A DNA stretch of 30,000 bases from Erwinia sp. SLM-02 (GCF_037450285.1 NZ_JAQISN010000005.1:20485-50484); one strand, 5' to 3'. Positions 3,921 through 19,328 are shown, counted from the first letter of the stretch. Notes: generated by a model not told the origin, from the sequence alone. Made by a program: numbers and translations.

Positions 3921-4790
3921 TTATCTGTTTTTCAGATAAGTATCGCGAAACTCTCTGGGCGGCATCCCCTTGGAGGCTTTAAAATGGCGATTAAACAGGG
4001 CCAGCGAGGAATAGCCGACCTCATCGGCAATACTGGAAACAGAATCCTGCGATTCCAGTAGTTTTTCGGCCGCATGCAGGATGCGCAGGTTAATAATGTA
4101 GTCCATCGGTGACTTCTTGGTGATACGCTTAAAAAGTCGGTGAAAAGTGGTCGAACTGACGTGGCAAAGGGTTGCCATCTGCTCCACCGAAACACGCTGA
4201 TGATAGTTATTATTCAGGTAATCAATCACCTCAAGAATATTTCTAATCTGCTTTCTGTCTTCACGAAAATGCTCGGAATGAATAATGGTAGAGAATTCCG
4301 TTACCGAATCCGACGCGAGCTTTAACAGAATATTCAACAACAGCGGCGTACGATAGGGCGGAGCCAGTTCAGCAATAGACATAATATCCGGCCTGACCTG
4401 CTGAATAACAGCTTCGCTAAATGTTACCGCAGAGGTTATTCGGCGCAAAAAATCTTTAACCGCCTTCATCTCTGGGAAAGTATCAGCCAGCTTTTCAATC
4501 CATTCAGAACTAAACCAGATAACCAGAGCCAAATGTGGATCGGCATCATTAATCTTTCCCTGCGATTTCCACGAATGAGGAACATTCGGACCAATCAAGA
4601 CCAAATCGTTATCTTTATAATGATTAATATCCCCACCAATATATTTAACGCCGTAACTATTTAGTGTAAACGTTAATTCATACTCAGGGTGATGATGCCA
4701 CTGAAAAGGAATCTCATCCTGCATCACTCGATGAAGAAATGACCATGACACATAAGGATTATTAATAATCTTTTCATAATCAGACTTCAT
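3921..4790 (-). CDS. AraC/XylS-family transcriptional regulator with N-terminal cupin-like sensor domain
   Basis: The C-terminus has the double HTH typical of the family (VSVEQMATLCHVSSTTFHRLFKRITKKSPMDYI and SSIADEVGYSSLALFNRHFKASKGMPPREFR). The N-terminus has the cupin-like FQWHHHPEYELTF. The gene is very A+T-rich. Confidence 0.9.
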   Translation of the reverse strand: MKSDYEKIINNPYVSWSFLHRVMQDEIPFQWHHHPEYELTFTLNSYGVKYIGGDINHYKDNDLVLIGPNVPHSWKSQGKINDADPHLALVIWFSSEWIEKLADTFPEMKAVKDFLRRITSAVTFSEAVIQQVRPDIMSIAELAPPYRTPLLLNILLKLASDSVTEFSTIIHSEHFREDRKQIRNILEVIDYLNNNYHQRVSVEQMATLCHVSSTTFHRLFKRITKKSPMDYIINLRILHAAEKLLESQDSVSSIADEVGYSSLALFNRHFKASKGMPPREFRDTYLKNR

Positions 4791-4913
4791 AATCCACTCT
4801 CATCATTATTGGTAGGATAGTATCAGTTATTGGCATTTTAACACTTACATAACAGACCTAAAACAGCCATTCTCTAGCCGTCGACATATTATCAACTTAA
4901 CACCCAACCTGAG

Positions 4914-4951
4914 ATAAATGTCAATAAAAAATATAAAATAAATGTCAATAA
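4914..4951 (+). promoter_or_regulatory. Exact 14-bp direct repeat ATAAATGTCAATAA x2 (candidate AraC-family operator/activator site)
   Basis: Copies lie at 4914-4927 and 4938-4951 (24-bp phasing), ending 43 bp upstream of the MFS ATG. AraC-family proteins commonly bind tandem direct repeats that overlap the -35 region. Confidence 0.4.
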
Positions 4952-4993
4952 TTTAAATCCGATAATGTGAACCAGATCAATAAAGGATAGAAG

Positions 4994-6271
4994 ATGAGCA
5001 CACCTGCCGCTATATTACATTCAACAAAAGAAGATCATTACCAGATTAATACACCATTGAAATTGATGGTATTCTCACTATTTTTTATGTTTGGCAGTAT
5101 CACCAGTTTAAACGATGTGTTGATCCCTAAACTGAAGGAGCTTTTCCAGCTCACCTATATGGAATCAATGCTGGTACAGTCCGCCTTTTTCTTCGCCTAC
5201 TTTACCGCTTCCATCCCCGCCAGCAGGCTGATCATCCGCTTCGGCTATGTCAAATCGGCAATTGCCGGGCTGCTGATTATGGGCATTGGCTGCCTGGCAT
5301 TTATTCCGGCCACTCATATCGGGTTGTTCCCGGCATTCCTTGGCGCTTTATTTCTGCTGGCCGTTGGTGTCACCGTTATTCAGGTGGTTGCCAACCCGCT
5401 AATCACCCTACTTGGTTCAGCCAGAAGCGCATCTATCAGGCTGACGCTTGGCCACGGATTCAATTCATTAGGCACCACCATTGCACCATGGATCGGGGCA
5501 ATTTTTATTCTCGGTGCTATTTCTGGTATCGATCTCTCAACCCTTCATGGAGCGGAACTGGCCGCGGCCATGCAGAAAGAAACGGCCGTGATCGGTCAGG
5601 CCTATACGGCCATCGCCGTAGTCATTTTTCTGTTTTGCGCAGCCATGTTCAGATTTAAGTCATTTGGTCAGCACAGCGCGATGCTACCAAAAACTAACCT
5701 GATGAACTCACTGAATTTATTTAGCAGTACACGTTTTCGCCTCGGGTTTATCAGTCTGTTTTTATACGTTGGGGCTGAGGTCACCATCGGCAGCATCTTA
5801 GTTAATTATCTGACTCATGGTGATGTCATGGCCATTACACCTGAACAGGCAGGTAAATATATTGCTTTTTACTGGGGTGGGGCCATGGTGGGTCGTTTTA
5901 TCGGCTCGGCGCTGATGAAAATAATTTCTCCTGCGAAGATTCTGTTTATATTCTCGGCAATGGTTATCACACTGATTGCGGTCAGTATGAATTCCCATGG
6001 AGAACTGGCCGGTTTTGCATTGCTCACGGTTGGCCTTTTTAATTCAATTATGTTCCCAACAATATTTTCCCTTTCCTGCTCGAAGCTTAATTCCCGTTCA
6101 GCTGAAGGTTCTGGCCTGCTCTGCTGTGCCATCGTCGGCGGAGGATTCATCCCTCCCATTACCGGCCTTCTGGCCGATATATTCACGTTAAAACTCAGCT
6201 TAATAATTCCGGCAGCATGTTACTTATTAATATTTTTATTCGGCACATACTGTGCTAAACAAGGAGATTAA
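4994..6271 (+). CDS. MFS transporter, fucose:H+ symporter (FHS) family, glucose/galactose-transporter-like
   Basis: 425 aa and roughly 12 hydrophobic segments. The N-terminal SLNDVLIPKLKELF motif is characteristic of FucP/GluP-type sugar permeases. AAGGA SD lies upstream of the ATG. Confidence 0.85.
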   Translation: MSTPAAILHSTKEDHYQINTPLKLMVFSLFFMFGSITSLNDVLIPKLKELFQLTYMESMLVQSAFFFAYFTASIPASRLIIRFGYVKSAIAGLLIMGIGCLAFIPATHIGLFPAFLGALFLLAVGVTVIQVVANPLITLLGSARSASIRLTLGHGFNSLGTTIAPWIGAIFILGAISGIDLSTLHGAELAAAMQKETAVIGQAYTAIAVVIFLFCAAMFRFKSFGQHSAMLPKTNLMNSLNLFSSTRFRLGFISLFLYVGAEVTIGSILVNYLTHGDVMAITPEQAGKYIAFYWGGAMVGRFIGSALMKIISPAKILFIFSAMVITLIAVSMNSHGELAGFALLTVGLFNSIMFPTIFSLSCSKLNSRSAEGSGLLCCAIVGGGFIPPITGLLADIFTLKLSLIIPAACYLLIFLFGTYCAKQGD

Positions 6272-6273
6272 TC

Positions 6274-7269
6274 ATGAAGTGGCTTCTTATTGGTGCCAGC
6301 ACCATTGCACAACAGTTTGTTATTGATGCGATTCGCGCAGGCGGCGATGAAATATCATGGCTGGTTAGTGGAGATGAACAACGGGCTGCGGCATTTGCTG
6401 TAAAAAACAACATTGCCCGTTTTACCACGGACCTGAAACTTGCCCTTTCGCAGCAGGATATTGATGCCGTATATATCTCTACAACCAACGAAAAGCATTT
6501 CCCGCAGGCGATGCTGGCGCTGGAGTATGGCAAGCACGTGCTGTGCGAAAAACCGATGGCACTTTCGATGGAAGAAGCGACAACGATGATCGAACGGGCA
6601 TCTGCGTGCAACCAAGTGCTGGCGGTAAACCACCACCTGCGCAATGCCGCGACGATTCGGAAAATGCGCGACGAGATTCGGAACGGCACGCTGGGTGATA
6701 TTCTCACCGTTCGCTTCTGCCACGCCGTTTCTCTGCCTGAAAATCTGATTGGCTGGCGCACGGATAACAGCGCAGGCAACGGTGTGATTATGGATATTAC
6801 CGTTCATGATATTGATACGTTGAGATTTTTACTCGATGACGACGTCGTCGCCGTTTCCGCAATGGCCCAGGACGGACTGCTAAGCCAGAGTGGCTCGGTG
6901 GAAACGGTGATGGGCACGCTACGTTTTTCCAAAGGTACGCTGGTCAGCTTTTTTGACTCCTTCACCGCCCGCAATTTTGAAACCAGTATTGATGTGATCG
7001 GCACGCAGGGTACGCTGCGTGCGCGCAATATTCTGACGCAGAACCCCGTAGGCGAAGTGACGCTTCATAACCGTCACGGGTCTGAACCGTTAGCGATCGA
7101 ACACGCCAGTCTTTATGAACGCGGTTTAGCCTCGTTCCGCGATGCGATATTCAATGGTGGGCAACCGGCGGCCAGTGGTGATGACGGACGACAGTCTCTG
7201 GCAGTATCTCTTGCCGTAGTGAAAGCGGTTTCATCCGGAATTACCGTTCATATCGGTGAGGAACAGTAA
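6274..7269 (+). CDS. Gfo/Idh/MocA-family NAD(P)-dependent oxidoreductase
   Basis: The N-terminal Rossmann start is MKWLLIGASTIAQ, and the conserved EKP motif is present (HVLCEKPMALS). Length is 331 aa. AGGAG SD is present, and the start lies 2 nt after the MFS stop. Confidence 0.85.
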   Translation: MKWLLIGASTIAQQFVIDAIRAGGDEISWLVSGDEQRAAAFAVKNNIARFTTDLKLALSQQDIDAVYISTTNEKHFPQAMLALEYGKHVLCEKPMALSMEEATTMIERASACNQVLAVNHHLRNAATIRKMRDEIRNGTLGDILTVRFCHAVSLPENLIGWRTDNSAGNGVIMDITVHDIDTLRFLLDDDVVAVSAMAQDGLLSQSGSVETVMGTLRFSKGTLVSFFDSFTARNFETSIDVIGTQGTLRARNILTQNPVGEVTLHNRHGSEPLAIEHASLYERGLASFRDAIFNGGQPAASGDDGRQSLAVSLAVVKAVSSGITVHIGEEQ

Positions 7270-7270
7270 A

Positions 7271-8788
7271 ATGCAGCGTGATTTAGACCATCCCGACATT
7301 GTGATTATTGGCTCCGGTATTGGTGGAGCCACCATGGCTTTCGGGCTTGCTAACAGCGATCTGAAGATCCTCATTCTGGAAAGCGGCGAACAGATGCCGG
7401 ACTCTCCGGACAATGACGATCAGCAGAAGATATTTTCTCAGCAGCACTTTAAGCCCGACGAAGTCTGGTTCGATAAAGATAATAAAGCTTTTCGCCCCGG
7501 GAATTACTACTACGTTGGTGGCAACTCCAAGTTCTACGGCGCGGTACTGGCACGCTACCGGCAGGAGGACTTTGAGGAGATGATCCATGAAGGAGGCGTT
7601 TCCCCCGCCTGGCCATTCGGTTATGCCGAACTGGAACCCTGGTACTGCGCGGCGGAAAAACTCTATCGGGTCAGGGGCAACAGCCAGGCCGACCCGACCG
7701 AACCACCCCGTTCCCACCCCTATGCTTTTGCAGCCATTGAGGATGAAGCCGATATCGCCATCGTCCGGCGCAGGCTGCAAAAACAGGGTCTTAGTCCCTA
7801 TTCTCTGCCGCTGGCGGTAGATATTGCACAGTGGAGCCAGTCGCGCAAAGTCCCGTGGGATGCACATCCCCACTATTTTAACGGCAAGTTTGATGCGGAA
7901 ACCGCCGCCCTGAGCCTGACCGCCAGCCACAGCAATATTCAACTTTTGACCGGCAGCAAGGTCATCAGACTGAAAACCGCTGCGGACGGCGGACGCATCG
8001 AAGAGGTGGTTTATCAACGCAATAATCAGACCTGTAGCGTGCGCCCTAAACTGGTTATTCTCGCCGCCGGAGCCGTACATTCGGCTGCGCTGCTGCTTAA
8101 ATCGAAAAACACCCGCTACCCCAACGGGCTGGCGAATCGCTCTGGCATGGTTGGTCGCAACTTTATGAACCACAACTGCACCGCCGTGGTGGGCTTCAGC
8201 CATCGCTACTGCAACCGCTCTGTGTATCAGAAAACCTTCGGCCTGAATGATTTCTATCTTTCCGACGGCGCAGGTGGCTACCCGCTAGGCAACATTCAGC
8301 TGTTGGGTCGCGTGTCCGGTCAGATCCTCAAGTCGTCCCTTCCCGCAGCGCCGGGTTTCGCCTTGAACTACTTCAGCAGGCACAGCATTGATTTTTACGC
8401 CATGAGTGAAGATTTGCCCTCCCCTGAAAACCGTATCCAGCTGGACGGCGATAAAATAACTCTGCACTGGGAGCGCAATAACTGGGCGGCGCATACCCGA
8501 CTGGTGAAAAAACTCAGCAACGCACTTAAGAAATGTGGGTTCTATTTTGTGATGAGTAAACCCTTCGATAAACGAACGCCGTCACACCAGTGCGGCACGG
8601 TCAGAATGGGTATCGATCCCGAGCGCGATCCGCTTAACAGTTACTGTCAGGCCTGGGAGCATGAGAACCTGTACGTGGTGGACGCCAGCTTTATGCCCAG
8701 TTCGGCAGCGGTTAACCCTTCACTGACTATTGCCGCGCAGGCGCTGCGAGTGGCGGACCACATAATGCAGCATCGTCTTGCCAAATAA
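7271..8788 (+). CDS. GMC-family FAD-dependent oxidoreductase
   Basis: Contains the FAD fingerprint DIVIIGSGIGGATMAFGLA. The C-terminal GMC active-site region is HQCGTVRMG ... NLYVVDASFMPSSAAVNPSLTIAAQALR. ATG at 7271 (GAGGA SD, 1 nt after the Gfo stop) is preferred over GTG at 7256. Confidence 0.85.
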   Translation: MQRDLDHPDIVIIGSGIGGATMAFGLANSDLKILILESGEQMPDSPDNDDQQKIFSQQHFKPDEVWFDKDNKAFRPGNYYYVGGNSKFYGAVLARYRQEDFEEMIHEGGVSPAWPFGYAELEPWYCAAEKLYRVRGNSQADPTEPPRSHPYAFAAIEDEADIAIVRRRLQKQGLSPYSLPLAVDIAQWSQSRKVPWDAHPHYFNGKFDAETAALSLTASHSNIQLLTGSKVIRLKTAADGGRIEEVVYQRNNQTCSVRPKLVILAAGAVHSAALLLKSKNTRYPNGLANRSGMVGRNFMNHNCTAVVGFSHRYCNRSVYQKTFGLNDFYLSDGAGGYPLGNIQLLGRVSGQILKSSLPAAPGFALNYFSRHSIDFYAMSEDLPSPENRIQLDGDKITLHWERNNWAAHTRLVKKLSNALKKCGFYFVMSKPFDKRTPSHQCGTVRMGIDPERDPLNSYCQAWEHENLYVVDASFMPSSAAVNPSLTIAAQALRVADHIMQHRLAK

Positions 8789-8810: not shown

Positions 8811-8840
8811 AAAACGCCATGTCAGACATGGCGTTTTTTT
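8811..8840. terminator. Bidirectional rho-independent terminator shared by the two convergent operons
   Basis: AAAACGCCATG-TCAGA-CATGGCGTTTT, with the T-run extending to 8840 on the plus strand. On the minus strand a T-rich stretch (TTTTGCTTTG) follows the stem. The element lies between the GMC stop (8788) and the flavoprotein stop (8842). Confidence 0.9.
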
Positions 8841-8841
8841 A

Positions 8842-10917
8842 TTAGCGGTATATTTTCCCCATCAGGAAATCAGGCCAGTTCTTTTCAAAAAAGACTTTAC
8901 TGAGATCCACCGGATCGTTCACCGGGCGCGAGGCATGATGGAAGCGTTCACCGTCCCACGCAATCAGCAGCTTGCTGTCCGGCGCGGCGGCTTTCTCCGA
9001 CCGGAAGCGCCATTTCTCAATCGGCCCGCTGCGACCCTCGGGAACTGAATCCCCCAGTTCATCAAGGATAATTCGGGCACCTCGGCTGCCGCCGCCGCCT
9101 TCGATATACGTGCTCAGCATCGCCATTACTGCAGCTGAAGCCAGCGCAAAATGCCGCCAGAGTATGTTTTCGGTCAGCTTAGTCAGGCTGGTCAACCTCA
9201 CACCTTTCGCCAGTACCTCGCTCAGCAGCAACGCAGCCCGCTGCTGTTCCTCTGCGATTTCCTGCGCCGCGACAACAAATCCGGCCTGGTCCGACATGCG
9301 GTTACGAATTTCGGTTTTCAGCGCAACGGGATCGATAGCGTCTTCCGACAGTGATTTTTCAGCCCACTGAATGATATCCGCCATCACATCCGCATAATCG
9401 ATTTCCCCTTCACGCGCGGCCAGCCGCTGGCGCTGCTGCACGTCGTGCGCCACCTTCTGCGCCACCCGCACGCCAAATACCTGTCCGGAGTTCAGCGCCG
9501 CGCCGCCGGGTCGGGTGACGCCATGGGTACCGGCCACTTCTCCCAGCGCAAAACAACCGGTAAGGCTGGTCTCTCCCCAAATATCCACCTCGATGCCGCC
9601 GTTCATATGCTGATTGTTCACCGCAAATTCCAGCGGACTGCGCGTGATGTCGCAGCCGTGCATGGCATAAAGCTCAATGGCCAGCGGATTCATCTGCCGG
9701 AGGCGATCGATCGGCAGATCGGCTGCACATTCGTTATTGGCGAGGTAGCTGCTGACATCTTCATCAAGCCGCGACAGCGAAAACGGCTGATCTCCCGGGA
9801 CCGGCTGCGGATTGCGGTTGAAATCCATATACACCCGGTGCCCGTTTTTCACCTCTTCGGCAATCGCCATATCCACCAGGCTGGAGCCGTGTTCCAGCGT
9901 GCGCGTGGCATGAAACGGCCACTGATAGCCCTTGCGGAACACATTTGAGGCCAGCTCCTGCGTGGTACGATAATACTGCGCGAGGAAGTTATGCTCGTTG
10001 CCCTGTGCATCCACCGAATAGATATAGGGGATCACCTGCACATAGGTTCCCGACAGGTTCCACGGAAATGCCGTACGCGGTGTGCCGATGCCAAACTGGC
10101 TTTCGATGATATTGGTTAACCTCAGCCCACCTTCCAGCGCCAGCCCCAGCGAACCGTAACACTTCTTCGGGTAAACGCTGTCGCGATACATATCCCCCGG
10201 CCCGCCGGTGGCCAGCACCACCGATGCGGCATTGATGACCCCAAAACGATAGGGATTGTGAACCGCGCTGCCGGTGCTGACCAGTAAACCGGCGCAGCGC
10301 TCCGCACCAGCGCTGTCCCGCTGCTTGATCAGCTTTAGCGCCGTTGTGGCGGTCAGCATCGGTATCGCCAGTCGCTGCGTCTCCTCCAGCAAGACCTTCA
10401 CCATCAACCGTGAGGTGCGCGGACCGCAGCTGGTGGCGCGACCGGCCTCATCATGGTCGGTCTGATAGCGCAATATCGAACCGAAGCGATCTTCGGGCAG
10501 TTCCAGCCCCAGATATTGCAGTCCCGCGAGTGTGTGGATGGAACCAACGGCTTCCACATAGGCGATATCTTTGTCCATTGCGCCGCCTGAGCTCAATGCC
10601 GCCGCCAGCTGATGGAAGTTATCGCCATTTTTGCCGGTCGCCGCGGTAAACAACGTCTGCTTGTCCGAACCCGAACAGGCCGAGGTGCCCATATACAGCC
10701 CCGACGTCACCAGCAGAACGTTGACGTTTTTTCGCTTCAGCTCCACGGCGGCGCGCAGCCCGGCGGCCCCGGTGCCGACCACCACCGCATCGTAGTGATA
10801 AAACGGAACATTCAGTCCGTTAATATCCCTTATTTCGCTTTCCCGGACTTTATTAAATGACTTAGGAAAGGATACCTGCGTCAGGCTATCCAGAATCTGT
10901 TGATCAACAGCACTCAT
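8842..10917 (-). CDS. Large FAD-binding oxidoreductase of the succinate dehydrogenase / fumarate reductase / L-aspartate oxidase flavoprotein superfamily (691 aa)
   Basis: The N-terminal dinucleotide fold is YDAVVVGTGAAGLRAAVEL. The distal FAD motif GCFALGEVAGTHGVTRPGGAALNSGQVFG matches the G-E-x-A-x-x-G-x-H-G-A-N-R-L-G-x-N-S-L...F-G pattern of SdhA/FrdA/NadB. No signal peptide is visible. Confidence 0.75.
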   Translation of the reverse strand: MSAVDQQILDSLTQVSFPKSFNKVRESEIRDINGLNVPFYHYDAVVVGTGAAGLRAAVELKRKNVNVLLVTSGLYMGTSACSGSDKQTLFTAATGKNGDNFHQLAAALSSGGAMDKDIAYVEAVGSIHTLAGLQYLGLELPEDRFGSILRYQTDHDEAGRATSCGPRTSRLMVKVLLEETQRLAIPMLTATTALKLIKQRDSAGAERCAGLLVSTGSAVHNPYRFGVINAASVVLATGGPGDMYRDSVYPKKCYGSLGLALEGGLRLTNIIESQFGIGTPRTAFPWNLSGTYVQVIPYIYSVDAQGNEHNFLAQYYRTTQELASNVFRKGYQWPFHATRTLEHGSSLVDMAIAEEVKNGHRVYMDFNRNPQPVPGDQPFSLSRLDEDVSSYLANNECAADLPIDRLRQMNPLAIELYAMHGCDITRSPLEFAVNNQHMNGGIEVDIWGETSLTGCFALGEVAGTHGVTRPGGAALNSGQVFGVRVAQKVAHDVQQRQRLAAREGEIDYADVMADIIQWAEKSLSEDAIDPVALKTEIRNRMSDQAGFVVAAQEIAEEQQRAALLLSEVLAKGVRLTSLTKLTENILWRHFALASAAVMAMLSTYIEGGGGSRGARIILDELGDSVPEGRSGPIEKWRFRSEKAAAPDSKLLIAWDGERFHHASRPVNDPVDLSKVFFEKNWPDFLMGKIYR

Positions 10918-10943
10918 ATTTTTTCCACAAAAATTTTATTTAA

Positions 10944-12173
10944 TTAACGCGTACACTTCACGGCATAGAACAGAATGACGCCGAAGCTGAACACCGGAAT
11001 AATAAACGCGGTTGCCATTGAGGAGTAATCGGCAATCATCCCCATCAGATAAGGCGAAATAGCCCCGCCGACTAAGGTCATCACCAGATAAGAACCCGCG
11101 CGCTTTGACTGCGCGCCCAGGTTTTTCACCCCCATGGCAAAAATGCACGGGTACATAATCGACAGGAAGAAGAAAATCACCACCAGTCCGATAACGGAGA
11201 TTTTTTCCACGCCCATCACCGCCAGCGAGCACAGCAGAATATTAATAATGCTGTAGGTAATTAACATGCTGCGTGGCGCGAAATACTTCATCACCCAGGT
11301 GCTGATAAAACGGCCAATCATAAAGGTCAGCATCGCGCAGGAAAGCAGATAAGAGGCGTCCTGCACGCTGGTACCCTTCCAGTGGTCAATCGCGTAGTTG
11401 ATAAAGAATGAGGCGATCCCCACATGCGCAGCCATATAAAAGAACTGGGCGGCCAGCGCGCCGGTAAAGCTCGGTTTTCTCCAGATGCTCTGCTGAACGG
11501 CACCGACGCAGCTGTCATCGCGTGCTTCCTGCACTTCCGGCAGGCGGGTGACGATAAACACCACCATCAGCAGCAGTACTACGGCAGCCAGCACCACGTA
11601 GGTGGTCATCACCGGATCAAAGGCGTGCCCGGCTATGCGAATGTCCGGCGCGAAGAACAGCGTACCGCCGATAATTGGCCCCATAAACACGCCAAGGCCG
11701 TTAAAGGACTGGGCGAAATTCAGGCGACGTTCGGCATTATTAGCATCACCCAGCACCGACGCATACAGATTGGCCGAAGTTTCCAGGCAGCCTAAACCGC
11801 AGGCCAGAATAAACAGGGCAAACAGGAAAAAGGCAAAAGTACCGACCGAGGTGGCCGGCACAAACAGTAATGCTCCGGCTGCGAAAAGTAATAATCCGCA
11901 GATCACGCCAAGCTTGTAGCCATAACGCTGCATCACTGCGCCGACCGGGATCGCCACAAGAAAATAGGCACCGTAATAGGCCATTTGCAAATAGCCGGAC
12001 TGCGCCTTGCTGACGTTTAAGGAATCCTGAAAATGTTTATTTAAAACATCCAGCAGGCCGTGGGAAAGCCCCCACAGGAAAAACAGCGAGGTGATCATGC
12101 CAAAGGCCAGCTTTACCGATACAGTCTTATTATTAAATGCAGGAACAGAAGCGATGTTGTTATCAATACTCAT
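10944..12173 (-). CDS. MFS transporter, FHS family, L-fucose-permease (FucP)-like
   Basis: 409 aa and roughly 12 TM segments. Motifs LFFLWGLSHGLLDVLNKHFQ and LGCLETSANLYASVLG closely resemble the FucP-type signatures (LFFLW...LNDIL, GLGCLETAANP). GAAGAGG SD is present. Confidence 0.85.
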   Translation of the reverse strand: MSIDNNIASVPAFNNKTVSVKLAFGMITSLFFLWGLSHGLLDVLNKHFQDSLNVSKAQSGYLQMAYYGAYFLVAIPVGAVMQRYGYKLGVICGLLLFAAGALLFVPATSVGTFAFFLFALFILACGLGCLETSANLYASVLGDANNAERRLNFAQSFNGLGVFMGPIIGGTLFFAPDIRIAGHAFDPVMTTYVVLAAVVLLLMVVFIVTRLPEVQEARDDSCVGAVQQSIWRKPSFTGALAAQFFYMAAHVGIASFFINYAIDHWKGTSVQDASYLLSCAMLTFMIGRFISTWVMKYFAPRSMLITYSIINILLCSLAVMGVEKISVIGLVVIFFFLSIMYPCIFAMGVKNLGAQSKRAGSYLVMTLVGGAISPYLMGMIADYSSMATAFIIPVFSFGVILFYAVKCTR

Positions 12174-12202
12174 ACAGACCTCTTCGCAGATGTTTTTAGT
12201 GT

Positions 12203-13807
12203 TTAATGACGGCCCAACCGACCGAGAATGGCATCCGCTGCCTTTTCGGCAATCATGATGGTCGGTGCGTTGGTATTACTGCTCGGGACGCGTGGTATCA
12301 CGGATGAATCCGCAATGCGCAGGCCTTCAAGACCAAATACCTTCAGATGCTCATCCACTACCGCATCAGGATCGCTCTCTACACCCAGGCGGCAGGTGCC
12401 TACCGGGTGATGATCGGTTTTTGCGTTCTGGCAGGCATACTCGAAGAGCTCGTCATCGGTACGGATCTGCGGCGAAGGCAGACGAATTTCCTTCACGTAA
12501 GGCTTGAACGCATCCTGCGACAGGATTTCACGCACCAGCTTCAGGCCGCGCAGTGACATTTCGCGGTCGTAAGGGTCCGCCCAGTAGTTGGGATCGATCA
12601 GCGGCGCATCGGCCGGATTGCCGCTTGCCAGCCGCAGCGTGCCGCGCGAGCGCGGGCGCAGGAAGGCGGAGTTCAGCGTCACGCCGGAGTTTTTCATCTG
12701 CTCAACGCCCGCTTCGATGCCGGACCCCAGCCCCAGGTGGAACTGCACGTCCGGTGACCGCGCGTTGCTGTCCAGGTACCAGAAGCCGCCCGTTTCAAAC
12801 AGGCTGGAGGCTACCGGTCCCTTCTTCAGCAGCAGATACTGCAAACCGGCCCAGGCCGCATGATGAATTTTCAGGCAGGGGTCGTAGGTATGGTCGCCGG
12901 TACACTCGGCAATAGCGAACAGGTCGAGGTGATCCTGCAGATTGCTGCCCACGCCCGCCAGATCATGTTTCACAGTAATACCCTGCTCTTCCAGATGCCG
13001 GGCCGGGCCGATCCCGGAAAGCATCAGCAGCTTAGGCGAGCCAAAGGCACCGGAGGTGACGATCACCTCCCGCGTAGCGCGTACCTGCTGTGTGCCGCCG
13101 CTGCCGGTGGCAATTTCCACACCGGTCGCCCGCTTGCCTTCCAGCAAAATGCGCAGGGTGAAAGTATTCAGCTTCACGGTCAGATTTGGCCGCGACTGCG
13201 CCGGACGCAAATATGCCACCGACGTTGAGGAGCGTTTAGCATTAAGCTGGGTAAGCTGGTAATAACCTAACCCGCCCTGATGCTCACCGTTAAAGTCCGG
13301 GTTATAGGGAATATTTAATTCCTGTCCGGCCTGGAAAAAAGCTTCGCAAATAGGCAACGGGCTGATGGGATTTGATACGCCAAGCGGGCCGCGATAATCA
13401 TGATATTCATTAACGAAGCGCTGGTTTTTTTCGGATTTTTTAAAATAGGGCAGCACATCTTTATAAGCCCAGTTTTTAACGCCGCAGGCCTGCTCCCATT
13501 CGTCATAATCATATTTCGACCCACGGGTATAAACCTGCGCGTTAACCGATGAACCGCCGCCAATTACTTTCGCCTGGGTAAATCGCAGTACGCGATTATT
13601 CAGATGCTTCTGCGGTACGGTGTGCCAACCCCAGCTACTGCGGCCCTTAGTCATTTTGGCAAAGCCGGCGGGCATGCTGAACAGCGGATGGGTATCACCC
13701 CCACCCGCCTCCAGCAGCAACACCTTAATTGCCGGGTCCTCGCTGAGTCGGTTCGCCAAAACGCAACCGGCAGATCCCCCGCCGATAATAATATAATCGT
13801 ATTCCAC
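12203..13807 (-). CDS. GMC-family FAD oxidoreductase, choline-dehydrogenase (BetA)-like
   Basis: Contains YDYIIIGGGSAGCVLANRLSED, GGSSVNAQVY, and the active-site region HHPVGTCRLG ... LRIADSSVIPRVPSSNTNAPTIMIAEKAAD. The start is GTG at 13807, with a GAGGT SD 5 nt upstream. Confidence 0.9.
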   Translation of the reverse strand: MEYDYIIIGGGSAGCVLANRLSEDPAIKVLLLEAGGGDTHPLFSMPAGFAKMTKGRSSWGWHTVPQKHLNNRVLRFTQAKVIGGGSSVNAQVYTRGSKYDYDEWEQACGVKNWAYKDVLPYFKKSEKNQRFVNEYHDYRGPLGVSNPISPLPICEAFFQAGQELNIPYNPDFNGEHQGGLGYYQLTQLNAKRSSTSVAYLRPAQSRPNLTVKLNTFTLRILLEGKRATGVEIATGSGGTQQVRATREVIVTSGAFGSPKLLMLSGIGPARHLEEQGITVKHDLAGVGSNLQDHLDLFAIAECTGDHTYDPCLKIHHAAWAGLQYLLLKKGPVASSLFETGGFWYLDSNARSPDVQFHLGLGSGIEAGVEQMKNSGVTLNSAFLRPRSRGTLRLASGNPADAPLIDPNYWADPYDREMSLRGLKLVREILSQDAFKPYVKEIRLPSPQIRTDDELFEYACQNAKTDHHPVGTCRLGVESDPDAVVDEHLKVFGLEGLRIADSSVIPRVPSSNTNAPTIMIAEKAADAILGRLGRH

Positions 13808-13879
13808 GTTGACCTCACGTCATGAGACGGCAGCCATCTTATTCAGATGGCCGCGTTATTATTTAACTTGCGAATTGAA

Positions 13880-15400
13880 TTAACTGGCGTTATTTATCCA
13901 CCAGTTGGTTCTGGCACCGGTGTGTAATTGCACGGTTTTCTGCTCGGTATAATCTTCTACCGCGCCCTTACCTAATTCACGCCCCAGGCCGGATTGTTTA
14001 AATCCGCCAAACGGTAATTCCGGCGAACCGTCCAGGAAAGTATTTACCCAGATCGTACCGGCATTAATTTTTCGCGCGGCTTCCAGGCAAATATCGATAT
14101 CCTTACTCCACACTGCGGCGGAAAGTCCGTACAGGGAGTTATTAGCAATGCTGATTGCCTCTTCATAATCGGCAAAGGTCAGAATGGCCAGTACCGGACC
14201 AAAGACCTCTTCCTGCGCAATCTGCATCTCCGCCTTCACGCCACCGACCACGGTAGGGGCCATAAACAGTCCCTGACCGGTCGTAACCCGGTCGCCGCCG
14301 AGCAGGATTTCAGCACCCTGTTCGCGGGCAGAACGGATAGCGTCCTCAATGACCGCCATCTGGTTATCATTAATAATTGAACCGACTTTGACCTCGGGAT
14401 GCAGCGGGTCGCCGACCTTCACCTGACTGGCTTTTTCTACCACCGCGCGGGTAAATTTCTCGGCAATGTCCTGATGCACCAGTACGCGGCTGCCGCTGTT
14501 ACAGCATTCGCCAGCGTTGAAATAGACGCCAAACACCACGGCATCGACCGCCGCGTCAAAATCGCAGTCCGGGAAGATGATTTGCGGATTTTTACCGCCC
14601 AGTTCCAGCGAGACTTTCTTCAGCTTGCGCCCGGCTTCCGCCGCGATATGTCTGCCTACCCGGGTGGAGCCGGTAAACGACACCATATCGACATCATCGT
14701 GATCCACCAGCGGACTGCCCACATTGGTACCCAGGCCGGTAACGATGTTGACCACGCCAGCAGGCACGCCCGCGTCGGTGAGGATTTCGCCCAGCATCAG
14801 CGTGGTTCCGCTGGTGAACTCGCTCGGTTTAATCACCACGGTACAGCCCGCCGCCAGCGCAAACGGCAGCTTCTGGCTGAGGATCCAGATCGGGAAATTC
14901 CACGGCGTGATCATCGATACCACGCCCACCGGCTGACGCAGCACCAGGCCGAGCATCTGGTCGCCCAGCGTGTTGTAGCTTTCACCGTGCAGCGTGCGGG
15001 CCAGCGAGGCGGCATAGCGCCATAAATCCACGCAGCCGGACACTTCACCGCGCGCCTGCGCCAGCGGTTTACCGGTTTCCAGGCATTCGATAATCGCCAT
15101 CTCTTCACTGCGCTGCGCAATGCCGTCGGCAATCTTCAGCAGCAGCTCCGCACGCTCCTTCGCGGTGAACGACGTCCATGTTCCTGCATCAAACGCACGG
15201 CGCGCCGCAGAAATGGCCAGCAGAGCGTCTTCCGCGCTGCCGTCAGCATAATTTCCGGCGACGATGCCGTGCGCAGGACCAACGCGGTCAACACGTTTGC
15301 CGCTAACGGAGTCACGGAATTCCCCGCCGATCAGCATGCTGCCGTGATAAGGCCGATAGTCAGTCAGGATTGACGGGTCTGCGGTTAAAAATGTGGTCAT
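13880..15400 (-). CDS. NAD(P)-dependent aldehyde dehydrogenase (hydrolytic type)
   Basis: Contains ITPWNFP, FTGSTRVGRHI, LELGGKNP (Glu), FNAGECCNSGSR (Cys) and EEVFGPV. I place the start at ATG 15400 (MTTFLTAD, GGAGAA SD). The 552-aa ORF-track version would overlap the upstream hydratase gene by 137 nt. Confidence 0.9.
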   Translation of the reverse strand: MTTFLTADPSILTDYRPYHGSMLIGGEFRDSVSGKRVDRVGPAHGIVAGNYADGSAEDALLAISAARRAFDAGTWTSFTAKERAELLLKIADGIAQRSEEMAIIECLETGKPLAQARGEVSGCVDLWRYAASLARTLHGESYNTLGDQMLGLVLRQPVGVVSMITPWNFPIWILSQKLPFALAAGCTVVIKPSEFTSGTTLMLGEILTDAGVPAGVVNIVTGLGTNVGSPLVDHDDVDMVSFTGSTRVGRHIAAEAGRKLKKVSLELGGKNPQIIFPDCDFDAAVDAVVFGVYFNAGECCNSGSRVLVHQDIAEKFTRAVVEKASQVKVGDPLHPEVKVGSIINDNQMAVIEDAIRSAREQGAEILLGGDRVTTGQGLFMAPTVVGGVKAEMQIAQEEVFGPVLAILTFADYEEAISIANNSLYGLSAAVWSKDIDICLEAARKINAGTIWVNTFLDGSPELPFGGFKQSGLGRELGKGAVEDYTEQKTVQLHTGARTNWWINNAS

Positions 15401-15401
15401 C

Positions 15402-16187
15402 TTATTCTCCCAGGTATTCTGCTTTACGCCGCTCAGAAAAACTCGCCAGTCCTTCTTTCGCATCGCGTGTGGTTGCTGCCAGCGCACCGGCAATGGATTC
15501 CAGCGCCATCGCCGTATCCGTTCCTGTGCCTGCATCAATAATCTGTCGGGTCAGCTGTACGGAAACCGGTGCCTGCTCGCTGATTTTTTCCGCCAGCGCG
15601 ATAGCCGTTTCCAGCGCCTTGCCCGGTTCGCTGATTTCCTGAACCAGGCCCGTCTCATACGCACGGTCGGCGTTGATGCGGATGCCGGTCAGCGCCATAT
15701 ATTTCACCTGCCCTGGTCCGATCAGCTGCACCAGACGCTGGGTACCCGACCATCCCGGGCAGGTGGCTATTCCCGCCTCCGGTAGGGCGAACGTGGCCGC
15801 CGGGTCGGTAACGCGAATATCGCTGGTAGCCAGCAGCTCCAGTCCACCGCCGAAGGCGTGACCGTTGATCGCCGCAATCACCGGCACTCTGAGCGTGGCC
15901 CAGCGGTCAAAAACCCGATGGCCTTTACGCACCCAGCTGCGCCACATATCCAGCGCCGCCAGCGAAGACCAAACCTTGATATCCGCACCCACGCAAAAGG
16001 CACGGTCGCCAACTGCGGTCAGTACCACGGCGCGCAGCACCGGGTGGTCATCAATTTCATCCGCAATGCGCGCCAGCTCGCTGAGCATAAAGGGCGTCAG
16101 CGCGTTGAGCTTTTCAGGGCGATTCAGCGTAACAATGGCAATCGTGCCGCGCGTCTCCAGCGTGACGCTGCCCATATTTTCAGCCAT
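15402..16187 (-). CDS. Enoyl-CoA hydratase/isomerase (crotonase) family protein
   Basis: 261 aa. Contains LNRPEKLNAL, FCVGADIK, INGHAFGGGLELLATSDIR and the second catalytic-region Glu in FALPEAGIA. The stop lies 1 nt before the ALDH ATG. Confidence 0.9.
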   Translation of the reverse strand: MAENMGSVTLETRGTIAIVTLNRPEKLNALTPFMLSELARIADEIDDHPVLRAVVLTAVGDRAFCVGADIKVWSSLAALDMWRSWVRKGHRVFDRWATLRVPVIAAINGHAFGGGLELLATSDIRVTDPAATFALPEAGIATCPGWSGTQRLVQLIGPGQVKYMALTGIRINADRAYETGLVQEISEPGKALETAIALAEKISEQAPVSVQLTRQIIDAGTGTDTAMALESIAGALAATTRDAKEGLASFSERRKAEYLGE

Positions 16188-17769
16188 GGGTCACCTCCGG
16201 TAGTTCCAGTCCCATTACCGCGTCGTAAAACATACGAGGATCCATAATCTTCAGGTTCTGAGCTACCCGCAGCGGGAAGTCGGCCTGCTCGAGCACGTCC
16301 CGGGTCAAATCCATGCCTGGCGCGATTTCCGTGACCATCAGCCCGTCTTTAGTCAGTTGCATCACGCAGCGCTCGGTGACATAGATAACGTCCTGTCCGC
16401 GTTCCAGCGCCATCCGGCCGCTGAACGTCACATGATCGACATCGTTAACCAGCTTGCGCATTTTGCCTTCCCGATCGATGACCAGTTCCCCACCCTCAAT
16501 CCGCTGGCTGGCGCCGGCTTTAAAGAATCCGGAAAACACCAGTTTTTTCGCATGGGTGGTAATGTCGACAAAGCCGCCGCAGCCGGCGGTCAGGTAAGGT
16601 TTGCCAGGGAGTTTCGACACGTTCACGTTGCCGAAGCGGTCAATCTGCAGGAACGACAGCATCGCCATATCAAAACCGCCGCCCTGGAAATAGGTGAACT
16701 GGGTGGATGCCGGGACGATCGCGTCAGCGTTGGCCGCACAGCCAAAGGCAAAGCCCAGCAGCGGCATACCGCCCACCGCCCCCTGCTCAATCACCCAGGT
16801 GACTTCTCCGTTCATGCCTTCTTCCAGCAGAATCCGCGGAACGTTGGCGGAAATACCGAAGCCGAGGTTAACGGTCATGCCTTTTTTCAGCTGCATGGCT
16901 GCGCGGCGGGCAATCAGTTTTTCCGTACCCCACTCAGGTACCTCAAAACTGCTTTCCGGGTGGAATATTTCGCCGCTGATCGCCGGATCGTAGGCAATCA
17001 TGGTGGTTTGCATCTGGTCCGGGGCCACAACGACATGGTCCACCAGGTTGCAGGGCACATGGACGTGATGCGGTTTCAGCGTGCCGGCTTTGGTCAGGCG
17101 CTTGACCTGGGCAATCACCGTGCCGCCATTGTTTCTCACTGCCAGCGCCTGTTCCACCACGCCAAGCACACCGCCTTCATGTTCAAAGGACAGGTTGCCA
17201 CGCTCGTCAGCGGTGGTGGCACGAATAATTGCCACATCCGGCACCAGCGGATGGAAGTGCAGCCAGGTTTGGCCGGAAAAATCAACTTTGCTGACCAGCG
17301 GTTCCGCGGCGGCAAGTTCGTTCATCGCGCAGCCCTGACGATCCGGGTCAACGAAGGTATCCAGACCCACTTTGGTCAGAACGCCGGGACGTTTTGCCGC
17401 CGCGTCCTTATGCAGATCGAACAGCACGCCGCTGGGCACGTTGTAGCCGGCGATTTCGTTGTCGATAATCATCCGCCAGATTTCCGGCATCGGTAAGGAT
17501 GACGGGCCGCTGGGCAGCGAACCTGCGATCACTTTTTTCAACAGTCCGGCCTGGGCAAGATGCTCAATCCCCGGAATACCGTACATATCCCCCGCGGCAA
17601 TCGGGTGGATCATGGTGAGATTGACCGGTTTCCCTTCATTTCTGTAACGCTTGCCCAGCGCAGCCAGCACCGCATCCGGGCAGTTCAGGCCGCTGGCCGA
17701 ACTGACGGTGACCGAAGCGTTATCGCCGACCAGCGCAGCGGCTTCGTCAGCAGTGAGTAGTTTTTTCAT
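16180..17769 (-). CDS. Family I acyl-CoA:acetate/3-ketoacid CoA-transferase, fused alpha/beta, YdiF/propionate-CoA-transferase-like
   Basis: About 530 aa, collinear with the E. coli YdiF pattern as I recall it (FVDP..., IIRATTADERGN, SFLQIDRFGNVNVSK, VTFSGRMALERGQDVIYVTERCV, EIAPGMDL). ATG at 17769 (MKKLL) is preferred, with GTG at 17778 possible. The 3' end overlaps the hydratase start by 8 nt. Confidence 0.88.
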   Translation of the reverse strand: MKKLLTADEAAALVGDNASVTVSSASGLNCPDAVLAALGKRYRNEGKPVNLTMIHPIAAGDMYGIPGIEHLAQAGLLKKVIAGSLPSGPSSLPMPEIWRMIIDNEIAGYNVPSGVLFDLHKDAAAKRPGVLTKVGLDTFVDPDRQGCAMNELAAAEPLVSKVDFSGQTWLHFHPLVPDVAIIRATTADERGNLSFEHEGGVLGVVEQALAVRNNGGTVIAQVKRLTKAGTLKPHHVHVPCNLVDHVVVAPDQMQTTMIAYDPAISGEIFHPESSFEVPEWGTEKLIARRAAMQLKKGMTVNLGFGISANVPRILLEEGMNGEVTWVIEQGAVGGMPLLGFAFGCAANADAIVPASTQFTYFQGGGFDMAMLSFLQIDRFGNVNVSKLPGKPYLTAGCGGFVDITTHAKKLVFSGFFKAGASQRIEGGELVIDREGKMRKLVNDVDHVTFSGRMALERGQDVIYVTERCVMQLTKDGLMVTEIAPGMDLTRDVLEQADFPLRVAQNLKIMDPRMFYDAVMGLELPEVTHG

Positions 17770-18009
17770 CGTGTTCACTTATTGTTTGATTAAAATCGAT
17801 AAAACATGAATTTTCCTGTCCAATCAGAAGCATCCCCTACTCATCACGTTCATCAATAAGCGCCAAACCTTGTTGGTAAAAAACAAAATTAATTATGTAA
17901 AACAGAAACATAACAACCCACCTATTGTTCCATACGGTTTATTATTGAGATCAAGCCAGCGTTTCTGGCGCGCTTTGCCCTTTCATTTAAAAACCATAAA
18001 AATTCAAAA

Positions 18010-18043
18010 TTGGATCGTTCCAATTTCTTTTGGAACGTTCCAA
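18010..18043. promoter_or_regulatory. Two LacI/GalR-type palindromic operators
   Basis: TTGGATCGTTCCAA lies at 18010-18023 (outer 5+5 bp symmetric). TTGGAACGTTCCAA lies at 18030-18043 and is a perfect 14-bp palindrome. Both have a central CG flanked by AA/TT as in the family consensus TGnAAnCGnTTnCA, are 20 bp apart, and sit in the divergent LacI/operon control region. Confidence 0.7.
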
Positions 18044-18232
18044 AACACTATAGATGGCATTAGAAAGAGTCAATCCGTCATAACAGATAAGATCTAAAAT
18101 ATGATCTTCGTCGCAAACTTCTTGTAAGTATCTTCACTTGCAATGCATTAATTGGTGATACCGCAGGGGGAAAGGTGGATTTTGACCAGTACCGCGATTA
18201 CTCTTAGGGAAATTTTTTCCAGAGGTTACAAA

Positions 18233-19261
18233 GTGAGACTTCCTACGGGTGACGGTAAAGTGACAATCATGGATATTGCCCGTGCTGCTGGCGTGTCCAA
18301 ATCTACTGTCTCACTTGTGCTTAACAACAGCGAACTGGTGAAGCCGGAGACAGCCGCAAAGGTGAAGCTGGCGGCGGAAAGCATCGGTTATGTCTATAAC
18401 CGCAGTGCGGCCAGCCTGCGGCAGGGAACCAGCAACGTTGTGGCGATGGTGGTTAATGACCTCACCAACTCTTTCTTTGTTGAGCTGCTGATCGGTGCCG
18501 AGCGCCGCCTGCTGGAATCGGGCTTTATCACCCTGCTCTCCCATACCGGGGAAGATATTCCGCTTCAGGAACAGGTACTTAATTCGATGCGTGAGCAAAA
18601 AGCCGCCGGGCTGATACTGTGCCCTGCACTGAGCACGCCGCCCGGCCTGATCCGAACGCTGAAAAGCTGGAAGCTGCCCTTCGTCACCGTGATGCGCCCG
18701 TTAGAGGGTGAAGACTCTGATTTTATCGGCTGTGATAACTACGAAGGCATTAAGCTGGCCACCCAGCACCTGATCGATCTCGGCCATAAAAAAATTGCCT
18801 TCATTGGCCGTAACCGCACCAATTCCGTCAGCGTTGTCCGCCAGGACGGCTACGAGCACTGCCTGCTGAACAACGGATTTACTATTAATTCGTCGTGGAT
18901 TGTAGAAAGTAGAATCAGCATGGCGGGTGGTAAAGAAGCGATGAAACAGCTGCTCCAGCTTAACGAACGCCCAACGGCAGTGGTGTGTTATAACGATCTG
19001 ATCGCCACCGGGGTACTAAGCGAAATCGGTGAACAGGGTTTGACCGCCGGCAAGGATATTGCCGTGGTCGGCAGCGATGGCGTAGCTAATACCGCGTTCA
19101 CCAACCCGCCGCTGACCACCGTTGCCCTGCAGAGCCATAAAGTTGGCGAACTGGCCAGTCAGATTCTGCTGAACCGGTTAAAGGATCCGACCGCGCCCTT
19201 TACCCACACACTGCTGAAGCCCGAACTGATTATCCGCAAGTCCTGCGGTTCTAAAGCCTGA
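18233..19261 (+). CDS. LacI/GalR-family transcriptional regulator
   Basis: The HTH is TIMDIARAAGVSKSTVSLVLNN, followed by a periplasmic-binding-protein-like sugar-sensor fold (VVNDLTNSFF, AFIG, VVCYNDLIATGVL). The start is uncertain. I prefer GTG at 18233 (AGAGG SD 7 nt upstream), with alternatives GTG 18260 and ATG 18269. The ORF-track start at 18152 looks too long. Confidence 0.88.
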   Translation: MRLPTGDGKVTIMDIARAAGVSKSTVSLVLNNSELVKPETAAKVKLAAESIGYVYNRSAASLRQGTSNVVAMVVNDLTNSFFVELLIGAERRLLESGFITLLSHTGEDIPLQEQVLNSMREQKAAGLILCPALSTPPGLIRTLKSWKLPFVTVMRPLEGEDSDFIGCDNYEGIKLATQHLIDLGHKKIAFIGRNRTNSVSVVRQDGYEHCLLNNGFTINSSWIVESRISMAGGKEAMKQLLQLNERPTAVVCYNDLIATGVLSEIGEQGLTAGKDIAVVGSDGVANTAFTNPPLTTVALQSHKVGELASQILLNRLKDPTAPFTHTLLKPELIIRKSCGSKA

Positions 19262-19284: not shown

Positions 19285-19328
19285 GGCTTCAGGCTTCAGG
19301 CTTCAGGCTTCAGGCTTCAGGCTTCAGG
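19285..19328. repeat. Perfect heptanucleotide tandem repeat (GGCTTCA) x6 plus a partial unit
   Basis: Six exact units span 19285-19326, followed by GG. The repeat starts 24 nt after the LacI stop codon and directly abuts the terminator stem. Confidence 0.95.

Follow-up and report, generated by a model that had tools for sequence, protein, structure and literature searches.

The locus described here lies in a window of 30,000 nucleotides of Erwinia sp. SLM-02 (GCF_037450285.1, NZ_JAQISN010000005.1:20485-50484; the window is the whole stretch of DNA that was analysed, and positions are counted from its first letter). It comprises a minus-strand operon of six genes, a divergent gene for a LacI-family repressor and a convergent module headed by an AraC-family regulator. 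Unusual CoA and flavoprotein components set the locus apart as an uncharacterised variant among sugar catabolic clusters, and the present analysis adds the orthology of the locus to a widespread alpha- and beta-proteobacterial cluster, the membership of a gene resembling 1,5-anhydro-D-fructose reductase (AFR) and a testable proposal for the pathway. In transcription order the operon is formed by a fused family I CoA-transferase of the YdiF/Pct type (16180-17769, assigned by CoA_trans and a YdiF match), a crotonase-family enoyl-CoA hydratase/dehydratase (15402-16187, ECH_1), a non-acylating NAD(P)-dependent aldehyde dehydrogenase (ALDH) of the sugar-aldehyde type (13880-15400, PF00171), a BetA-like GMC primary-alcohol oxidase or dehydrogenase (12203-13807, GMC_oxred_N/C), a FucP-like FHS transporter (10944-12173, TIGR00885) and a stand-alone flavoprotein of 691 residues with the SdhA/FrdA fold, belonging to an uncharacterised family (8842-10917, PF00890). 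The successive spacings are -8, 1, 72, 29 and 26 nt. The ALDH starts with ATG at 15400, its open frame extending back to a TTG at 15538. All six proteins, together with LacI, are present at the same lengths, identical or nearly so, in public collections from Erwinia sp. JUb26 and Pantoea coffeiphila-like genomes. The tight spacing and a gene order conserved in Erwinia, Sodalis and Serratia suggest that the six genes form one transcript. An original prediction, made by a model from the nucleotides alone, had placed these six genes and their spacings exactly as found here, and its family calls match the Pfam and NCBIfam assignments.

The first four products form a set that would oxidise an alcohol to an acid and handle a CoA ester. 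The CoA-transferase (PF01144) matches YdiF of Escherichia coli (PDB 2AHU) with 383 bits over residues 4-528, as a fused alpha/beta protein, and is 61-67% identical to the CoA-transferases of the alphaproteobacterial clusters treated below, but only 39.5% identical to the one encoded in an E. coli island. Both catalytic glutamate motifs (GGGLEL and LPE) are kept in the crotonase, whose nearest solved structures are true hydratases or dehydratases: the short-chain enoyl-CoA hydratase 5Z7R and the 3-hydroxypropionyl-CoA dehydratase 5ZAI. The ALDH scores 569 bits on PF00171 and 525 bits against L-sorbosone dehydrogenase 7W5L. Its best matches are models of the betaine-aldehyde dehydrogenase type and L-sorbosone dehydrogenase, phenylacetaldehyde-dehydrogenase models scoring as well. 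On the model of the CoA-acylating methylmalonate-semialdehyde dehydrogenase (MMSDH, TIGR01722) it reaches 287 bits against a cut-off of 448, which upholds the earlier call of a hydrolytic, non-acylating enzyme. The GMC protein stays below the cut-off of the choline-dehydrogenase subfamily model (574 against 605 bits), has choline dehydrogenase 9LQ0 (371 bits) and the chloramphenicol primary-alcohol oxidase 8B7S (336 bits) as nearest solved structures, and is 59-73% identical to its counterparts in the alpha- and beta-proteobacterial clusters. The FHS transporter passes the FucP-type model TIGR00885 with 286 bits (cut-off 280).

Among solved structures the best sequence match of the flavoprotein, the product of the last gene of the operon, reaches only 53 bits. 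An AlphaFold (AF2) model built on 32 relatives gave a predicted local distance difference test (pLDDT) value of 87.8 and a predicted template-modelling score (pTM) of 0.91, and presents the complete four-domain FrdA/SdhA architecture. In Foldseek the model matched FrdA (5VPN and 1KF6) with template-modelling (TM) scores of 0.66/0.78 at 17-20% identity, followed by adenylylsulfate/phosphoadenylylsulfate (APS/PAPS) reductase and NadB. Its residues were compared by alignment with SdhA, FrdA and NadB of the same genome. The flavoprotein and its relatives lack the covalent-FAD His45, His242, the Thr254/Glu255 loop and the catalytic Arg286 (SdhA numbering), which are replaced or deleted, and the equivalent of Arg399 is the single SdhA catalytic position kept. 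Genes for iron-sulfur and membrane-anchor subunits were absent beside the flavoprotein gene both in the window and in 80 related loci, some of which contain a flavodoxin or a GltD-like protein instead of the partner subunits of complex II; these partners suggest a low-potential or flavin-activating supply of electrons. The family comprises 387 representative clusters (50% identity) at E<1e-30, with GSDKQT, WNLSGTY and KGYQWPF among its invariant motifs. Despite its SdhA/FrdA fold, the protein thus appears from alignment and model not to be a fumarate-type enzyme. The missing catalytic residues mean that a role as an enoate or acrylate reductase is not implied, and a fumarate, urocanate or acrylate-reductase function was rejected on the same grounds; the SdhA/FrdA likeness given originally stands as far as the fold is concerned. 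About 80 kb from the window the same genome contains another open frame of 925 residues (L022, G000:C5:108178-109443) which matches FAD_binding_2, is extended at its N-terminus by a part that has no annotation, and has no relation to the 691-residue flavoprotein. From its first residues a domain like Old Yellow Enzyme and an architecture like that of NADH:enoate/acrylate reductases were guessed.

The regulator of the operon is a LacI-family repressor of 342 residues (18233-19261, plus strand; Pfam LacI and Peripla_BP_1/3), composed of a helix-turn-helix domain (PF00356) and an effector domain resembling periplasmic binding proteins (PF00532/PF13377) and separated from the operon by a spacer of 463 bp. 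Its orthologues in the alphaproteobacterial clusters are 32-44% identical. Two putative LacI-type operators were identified in the spacer by motif match (18010-18043), 14-bp palindromes with a central CG whose sequences are TTGGATCGTTCCAA at 18010 and TTGGAACGTTCCAA at 18030, their centres being 20 bp apart. These are the only two matches of the motif in the whole window, for a chance expectation of 0.32. The motif was also identified in the equivalent spacers of six loci (L002, L006, L008, L010, L036 and L048), the relatives concerned being E. tasmaniensis, Sodalis (twice, at distinct places), Serratia ficaria, Yoonia and an uncultured alphaproteobacterial metagenome-assembled genome (MAG). 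This recurrence across genera and classes argues for one conserved regulon. The operon ends at a bidirectional intrinsic terminator common to both convergent units (8811-8837), with a stem of 12 bp, a T-run after it and an A-run before it. The terminator and the divergent LacI gene with its two palindromes had both been predicted and were both recovered, and the conservation of the operator supports the further claim that this is a LacI-controlled locus of carbohydrate type. Downstream of LacI, between its stop codon and the next hairpin, there is a perfect heptanucleotide repeat (GGCTTCA, 6.3 copies, 19285-19328) whose unit length is not a multiple of three.

Across the terminator lies a module of four genes (3921-8788). 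It comprises the AraC-family regulator (3921-4790, minus strand; Pfam HTH_18/HTH_AraC) and, on the plus strand, a sugar:H+ symporter of the FHS family and of the glucose/galactose (GluP) type (4994-6271; 239 bits on TIGR01272 gluP, cut-off 203), an AFR-like reductase of the Gfo/Idh/MocA family (6274-7269, assigned by its match to solved AFR) and a second GMC-type flavoprotein, GMC2, cytoplasmic and similar to sugar dehydrogenases (7256-8788, assigned by its match to a GMC2 of Rhizobium). The reductase matches solved AFR over its full length (4KOA and 2GLX, 321 and 319 bits, E 6e-95, about 52% identity), keeps the motifs GASTIA (NADP), EKP and DITVHD, and has the catalytic Lys, Asp and His aligned. 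Single-linkage clustering had grouped it with a Rhizobium Gfo protein resembling levoglucosan dehydrogenase (LGDH), a grouping that was rejected after direct comparison (28% identity). GMC2 is 59% identical to the Rhizobium GMC2, which there adjoins GMC and flavoprotein genes, and its nearest solved structures are the catalytic subunit of FAD-glucose dehydrogenase (6A2U) and fructose dehydrogenase (7W2J). As listed, the GMC2 frame starts with GTG and overlaps the AFR-like gene by 14 nt (7256-7269); since the alignment with the Rhizobium protein starts at residue 13, translation may in fact begin at a codon downstream of this GTG.

Judging from its gene content, the AraC module belongs to the same system as the six-gene operon. 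The LacI-operon of Sodalis is flanked by homologues of the AraC regulator (45% identity) and of the GluP-type permease (62%), and with GMC2 and the AFR-like reductase in the convergent unit all eight members of a set conserved in other bacteria are present in the window, split over two convergent units with a common terminator. The six-gene unit as first delimited was therefore incomplete, two conserved partners being encoded across the terminator. G+C content is 0.40 over 4001-5000 against 0.55-0.60 around it, the A+T-rich part covering the gene of the AraC regulator together with the 5' end of the gene for the GluP-type symporter (3921-5000). A search through 80 other genera of the window's GTDB family, with a single genome per genus, identified the flavoprotein in 5, and the AFR-like and GMC2 genes in none of the 80. 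The low G+C of the AraC end and this absence are consistent with an acquired island and suggest horizontal acquisition.

The conserved set was defined from a profile-guided scan of 185,579 species genomes which recovered the 80 flavoprotein loci; their neighbours were clustered and the recurrent clusters annotated, and in high-GC loci, where antisense open reading frames arise, gene context rests on BLAST-confirmed genes. The set comprises eight proteins: LacI, CoA-transferase, crotonase, ALDH, GMC, GMC2, the SdhA-like flavoprotein and a Gfo/AFR reductase. Orthologues of all eight lie together in several lineages of alpha- and beta-proteobacteria, as a rule with a KDG-kinase-like gene and a glucose-type ABC binding protein and in many cases with a KDPG aldolase. 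In the 80 loci the flavoprotein recurs with the BetA-like GMC, GMC2 (about 500 residues), Gfo/Idh/MocA, LacI, CoA-transferase, crotonase and ALDH, to which are added a KdgK-like PfkB kinase, 2-keto-3-deoxy-6-phosphogluconate (KDPG) aldolase, a CUT1 ABC sugar transporter and a Dabb protein. The KdgK-like PfkB (250 bits) and the PF01081 aldolase adjoin the flavoprotein gene in about 20 loci, and an NAD(P) sugar oxidoreductase, be it Gfo, AFR-like or a short-chain dehydrogenase/reductase (SDR), always accompanies it.

The close enterobacterial relatives keep the order LacI / CoA-transferase, crotonase, ALDH, GMC, (MFS), flavoprotein. The operon of E. tasmaniensis extends into a long-chain flavodoxin, an overlapping PfkB kinase and a PF01081 KDPG aldolase. 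A flavodoxin adjoins LacI in Sodalis and Serratia ficaria, where permeases of the shikimate type (MHS) or PcaK type (AAHS) are swapped in or added, and a minimal paralogue in Sodalis contains LacI, CoA-transferase, crotonase, MHS permease and flavoprotein only. The full order, identified in Yoonia, Ruegeria and Rhizobium, is CoA-transferase, crotonase, ALDH, substrate-binding protein, permeases, ATPase, GMC2, GMC, (Dabb), LacI, Gfo, flavoprotein and PfkB. The binding protein of the Yoonia cluster scores 581 bits against 4R2B and 375-389 bits against the sugar-ABC binding proteins 5DVF, 8HQQ and 5XPJ, which we take to be glucose-binding proteins. In most alphaproteobacterial clusters the Gfo protein is LGDH-like, nearest to levoglucosan dehydrogenase 6A3F. 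Five alphaproteobacterial genomes contain an AFR-like gene (45-50% identity) between LacI and CoA-transferase, divergent from the flavoprotein gene, with GMC2 and GMC side by side on the same contig. Two CoA-transferase copies of this class are irregular: the one of Rhizobium ruizarguesonis Vaf-46 (L111/L112, G001:C1:3058426-3059999) is in two overlapping pieces with a possible frameshift, and the one of Ruegeria (L108, G002:C3:4608-6185) has one in-frame TGA. They are either decaying genes or assembly errors.

In Planctomycetota, Verrucomicrobiota and Armatimonadota the flavoprotein is accompanied instead by SDR, Eda and PfkB, with the occasional addition of a GltD-like Fe-S flavoprotein and of an AP_endonuc_2 or 3-keto-disaccharide-hydrolase family protein. 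Four loci of Pirellulales MAGs (L093, L098, L099 and L090) have an IF-2B-family gene (MtnA-like, sugar-1-phosphate isomerase) after PfkB beside the flavoprotein gene, which hints at a different downstream route in Planctomycetota. In three loci of Armatimonadota and Planctomycetaceae MAGs (L088, L097 and L100) a PF06439 3-keto-disaccharide-hydrolase gene adjoins the flavoprotein gene, a neighbour that links the family to 3-keto-sugar chemistry in these phyla.

The KdgK-like kinase, the KDPG aldolase, the glucose-type binding protein and the AFR-like enzyme tie the system to sugar catabolism. The operon and the AraC module are tentatively read, at somewhat less than an even chance, as the form taken in Erwinia by a conserved but uncharacterised system for the breakdown of a neutral, glucose-like sugar, which would be degraded by way of a sugar acid, a CoA thioester and an acid of the 2-keto-3-deoxygluconate (KDG) type. 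We infer the chemistry from the gene families, the nearest characterised enzymes and the conserved clustering. The BetA-like GMC would oxidise a primary alcohol of the sugar to the aldehyde and the sorbosone-dehydrogenase-like ALDH would make a sugar acid of the uronic type, which the YdiF-type CoA-transferase would turn into a CoA thioester. The crotonase would then abstract the acidified alpha-proton and eliminate the beta-hydroxyl, ring opening and return of the CoA would give a 2-keto-3-deoxy-hexonate, and the housekeeping KdgK and Eda, as the tail of a semi-phosphorylative Entner-Doudoroff route, would split the latter into pyruvate and glyceraldehyde-3-phosphate. As far as the genes are concerned, comparative genomics bears out the core of the original prediction, namely that uptake and regulation of the sugar type are combined with alcohol-aldehyde-acid oxidation and CoA chemistry; the chemistry itself stays conjectural. 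No matching pathway had been recognised then, and likewise no description of the cluster was found in the literature on this gene combination and on the catabolism of anhydroglucitol and anhydrofructose.

Within this proposal the likeliest class of substrate would be 1,5-anhydro-D-glucitol, 1,5-anhydro-D-fructose and 1,5-anhydro-D-mannitol, an assignment that is itself doubtful. It is put forward because a reductase of AFR level belongs to the set and the transporters are of the glucose type. A sugar with no anomeric hydroxyl cannot enter the kinase/isomerase routes and needs a non-hydrolytic opening of the ring. On paper, 1,5-anhydro-D-mannitol subjected to oxidation at C6, loss of the 4-OH and opening at C5 would give the D-erythro acid, which is KDG (2-keto-3-deoxy-D-gluconate), and 1,5-anhydro-D-glucitol would give the L-threo isomer by the same steps. 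This difference would explain an epimerisation by GMC2 and the AFR-like reductase, which together would convert the gluco form through the 2-keto form into the manno form. Two steps can be envisaged for the flavoprotein. It could carry out a redox-neutral hydration, with reduced flavin, of the 2-alkoxy-enoyl (vinyl ether) intermediate left by the crotonase, or it could perform an oxidation paired with the NAD(P) reductase (AFR-like, LGDH-like or SDR) so as to epimerise a centre. The model for such a hydration is 2-haloacrylate hydratase. According to a 2025 review, the enzyme acting after 1,5-anhydromannitol in rhizobia is unidentified, no aerobic route for 1,5-anhydroglucitol is known, and such an enzyme would be of medical interest (PMC12441222). 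[quoted passage not shown]

Several points weigh against the glucose-like sugar and its anhydro candidates. With 52% identity to AFR, the reductase may have a different 2-keto-pyranose as its substrate, for instance 2,5-diketo-3-deoxygluconate in its pyranose form, and the most conserved member of the system, the flavoprotein, is not needed by the redox balance of the proposed route. Most alphaproteobacterial clusters use the LGDH-like Gfo and have no AFR, and some relatives carry transporters of the shikimate and aromatic-acid types. The GTDB family to which the Rhizobium genome G001 belongs was sampled with 41 genomes, many steps outside Rhizobiaceae included; AFR was identified in 7 of them and the flavoprotein in 2, never both in one genome. 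Finally, the window lacks a dedicated KDG kinase, a PF01081 aldolase and a flavodoxin beside LacI such as those of Serratia and Sodalis. The only such kinase of the genome is the housekeeping kdgK and its only flavodoxins are the housekeeping FldA and FldB, so the pathway would depend on housekeeping kdgK, eda and fldA/B.

The same logic could apply to another substrate, an unlikely alternative but one with several features in its favour. Oxidation of the terminal carbinol of a hexitol or a ketose (for example one like L-sorbose) would yield first an aldose or osone and next an aldonic acid. Together, CoA-transferase and crotonase would work as a thioester-based aldonate dehydratase giving KDG by 2,3-elimination, and GMC2, Gfo and the flavoprotein would adjust stereocentres through oxidation and reduction. 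This would suit an ALDH closest to L-sorbosone dehydrogenase, the linkage of KdgK and Eda to the clusters and the constant presence of an NAD(P) sugar oxidoreductase with the flavoprotein, which fits epimerisation couples; CUT1 ABC systems also carry polyols. The GMC and ALDH pair, moreover, mirrors Gluconobacter's FAD-dependent L-sorbose dehydrogenase (SDH) and L-sorbosone dehydrogenase (SNDH) (PMC7092628). However, hexoses form rings, and it is normally Gfo or SDR enzymes, not ALDHs, that oxidise them, as lactols. A 2-keto-aldonate offers the crotonase no alpha-proton, the binding protein is more like those for glucose than those for polyols, and a match of AFR level speaks for a substrate of the 2-keto-1,5-anhydro or osone kind.

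The shikimate-transporter-like MHS and PcaK-like AAHS permeases of related clusters would fit a hydroaromatic or aromatic substrate, in which a ring-bearing alcohol (benzyl alcohol, a monolignol or a hydroxymethyl-cyclitol) is oxidised to the acid and degraded as CoA ester in the manner of beta-oxidation, with the flavoprotein as acyl-CoA dehydrogenase or ene-reductase and the crotonase as hydratase. Aryl-alcohol oxidases are among the members of the GMC family, phenylacetaldehyde-dehydrogenase models also score on the ALDH and the low-potential partners (flavodoxin and GltD-like protein) would suit a reductase. This is nevertheless quite improbable: a 3-hydroxyacyl-CoA dehydrogenase, a thiolase and a ring hydrolase are all absent, the catalytic Arg of the C=C reductases of this fold is missing from the flavoprotein, and linkage to KdgK, Eda, AFR- or LGDH-like enzymes, glucose-type binding proteins and LacI is consistent. 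Most improbable of all is an acrylate/3-hydroxypropionate module like acuN-acuK-dddA-dddC of Halomonas, the analogy drawn in the original prediction, in which CoA-transferase and hydratase would convert acrylate into 3-hydroxypropionate, the GMC would give malonate semialdehyde and the ALDH would finish. That module would have the same CoA-transferase, crotonase and ALDH families (the families of AcuN and DddA being presumptive), and a 3-hydroxypropionyl-CoA dehydratase is among the structural neighbours of the crotonase. Here, however, the ALDH is not of the CoA-acylating MMSDH type, control is by LacI and AraC and not by LysR and TetR, uptake relies on FHS transporters of the sugar type or ABC systems of the glucose type, and the cluster is conserved with KdgK, Eda, AFR and a second sugar dehydrogenase, so that the likeness proves a coincidence at the level of Pfam families. 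The deoxyribonate acyl-CoA pathway of Klebsiella michiganensis (Price 2019) was also considered and rejected, as it employs a CoA synthetase, a hydroxyacyl-CoA dehydrogenase and a thiolase and is encoded in a different cluster.

If the catabolic route through a sugar acid and its CoA thioester were true, the locus would represent a new strategy of sugar catabolism, with a CoA thioester and a crotonase in place of dehydratases of the enolase superfamily or the IlvD/Edd family. In no earlier case would CoA thioesters have served for the opening of a sugar ring. A large branch of the complex-II flavoprotein family that has so far been an orphan would also receive its first function; this branch spans E. 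coli, Salmonella, Klebsiella, rhizobia, roseobacters, Planctomycetota and Verrucomicrobiota, and could supply the long-sought aerobic route for 1,5-anhydroglucitol and 1,5-anhydromannitol. Even with a wrong guess of the substrate, the eight genes form a compact set whose members can be tested together.

Among known systems, the AFR pathway of Sinorhizobium (EC 1.1.1.292; 2GLX and 4KOA) is echoed by the homologue of about 52% identity in the window, here paired with a glucose-type transporter. The published route, however, goes to mannose by hydroxylation at C-1 and not to a CoA ester, and the AFR-positive genomes sampled around Rhizobium G001 lack the flavoprotein cluster. As AFR and flavoprotein do not co-occur in those 41 genomes, the Sinorhizobium route is a different one. 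The island between ytfB and rplI of E. coli, Klebsiella and Salmonella, itself uncharacterised, comprises TetR, SDR, AP_endonuc_2, crotonase, CoA-transferase, a flavoprotein of 690 residues and an ACS permease. It shares the flavoprotein family (62% identity) and the pairing of a crotonase with a family I CoA-transferase, but these two enzymes are only 34.6% and 39.5% identical to those of the window, GMC, ALDH, AFR and GMC2 are lacking, the regulator is TetR and the transporter is of the acid type. As a variant it is distinct, and it probably starts from an acid.

In Gluconobacter oxydans an FAD-dependent L-sorbose dehydrogenase is paired with an NAD(P) L-sorbosone dehydrogenase (PMC7092628). 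As proposed for the window, a flavoprotein alcohol dehydrogenase followed by an ALDH takes a sugar carbinol to a sugar acid, the window ALDH scoring 525 bits against SNDH 7W5L, but there the product, 2-keto-L-gulonate, is excreted with no CoA chemistry after it. The Halomonas and Alcaligenes acu/ddd systems differ from the window in the subtype of ALDH, in regulation, in transport and in the neighbours that are conserved. DddA is presumably a flavoprotein of the GMC type and DddC an ALDH of the MMSDH type, and the Halomonas system is under LysR/TetR control and accompanied by genes for dimethylsulfoniopropionate (DMSP) and acrylate (dddD, dddT and acuI), whereas the window presents LacI and AraC and the neighbours in its relatives are sugar genes. 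The catabolism of 3,6-anhydro-galactose employs an ALDH, an anhydrogalactonate cycloisomerase, a 2-keto-3-deoxygalactonate (KDGal) kinase and an aldolase for its 6-phosphate (KDPGal). The anhydro sugar is converted into its acid, abstraction of the alpha-proton and beta-elimination open the ring to a 2-keto-3-deoxy acid, and kinase and aldolase follow. That route uses an enolase-superfamily cycloisomerase on the free acid, whereas in the window, which encodes additional flavoproteins, the CoA-transferase and crotonase would act on a thioester. Both 1,5-anhydroglucitol and 1,5-anhydromannitol are used by the anaerobic 'anhydroglycolysis' of E. coli, the one bacterial route known, which relies on the phosphotransferase system and the glycyl-radical enzyme YbiW/PflD (PMC13450708, PMC12441222). 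Being radical-based and strictly anaerobic and proceeding by way of the 6-phosphates, it has no enzymes in common with the window cluster, but it concerns the same candidate substrates and shows that these are real bacterial nutrients.

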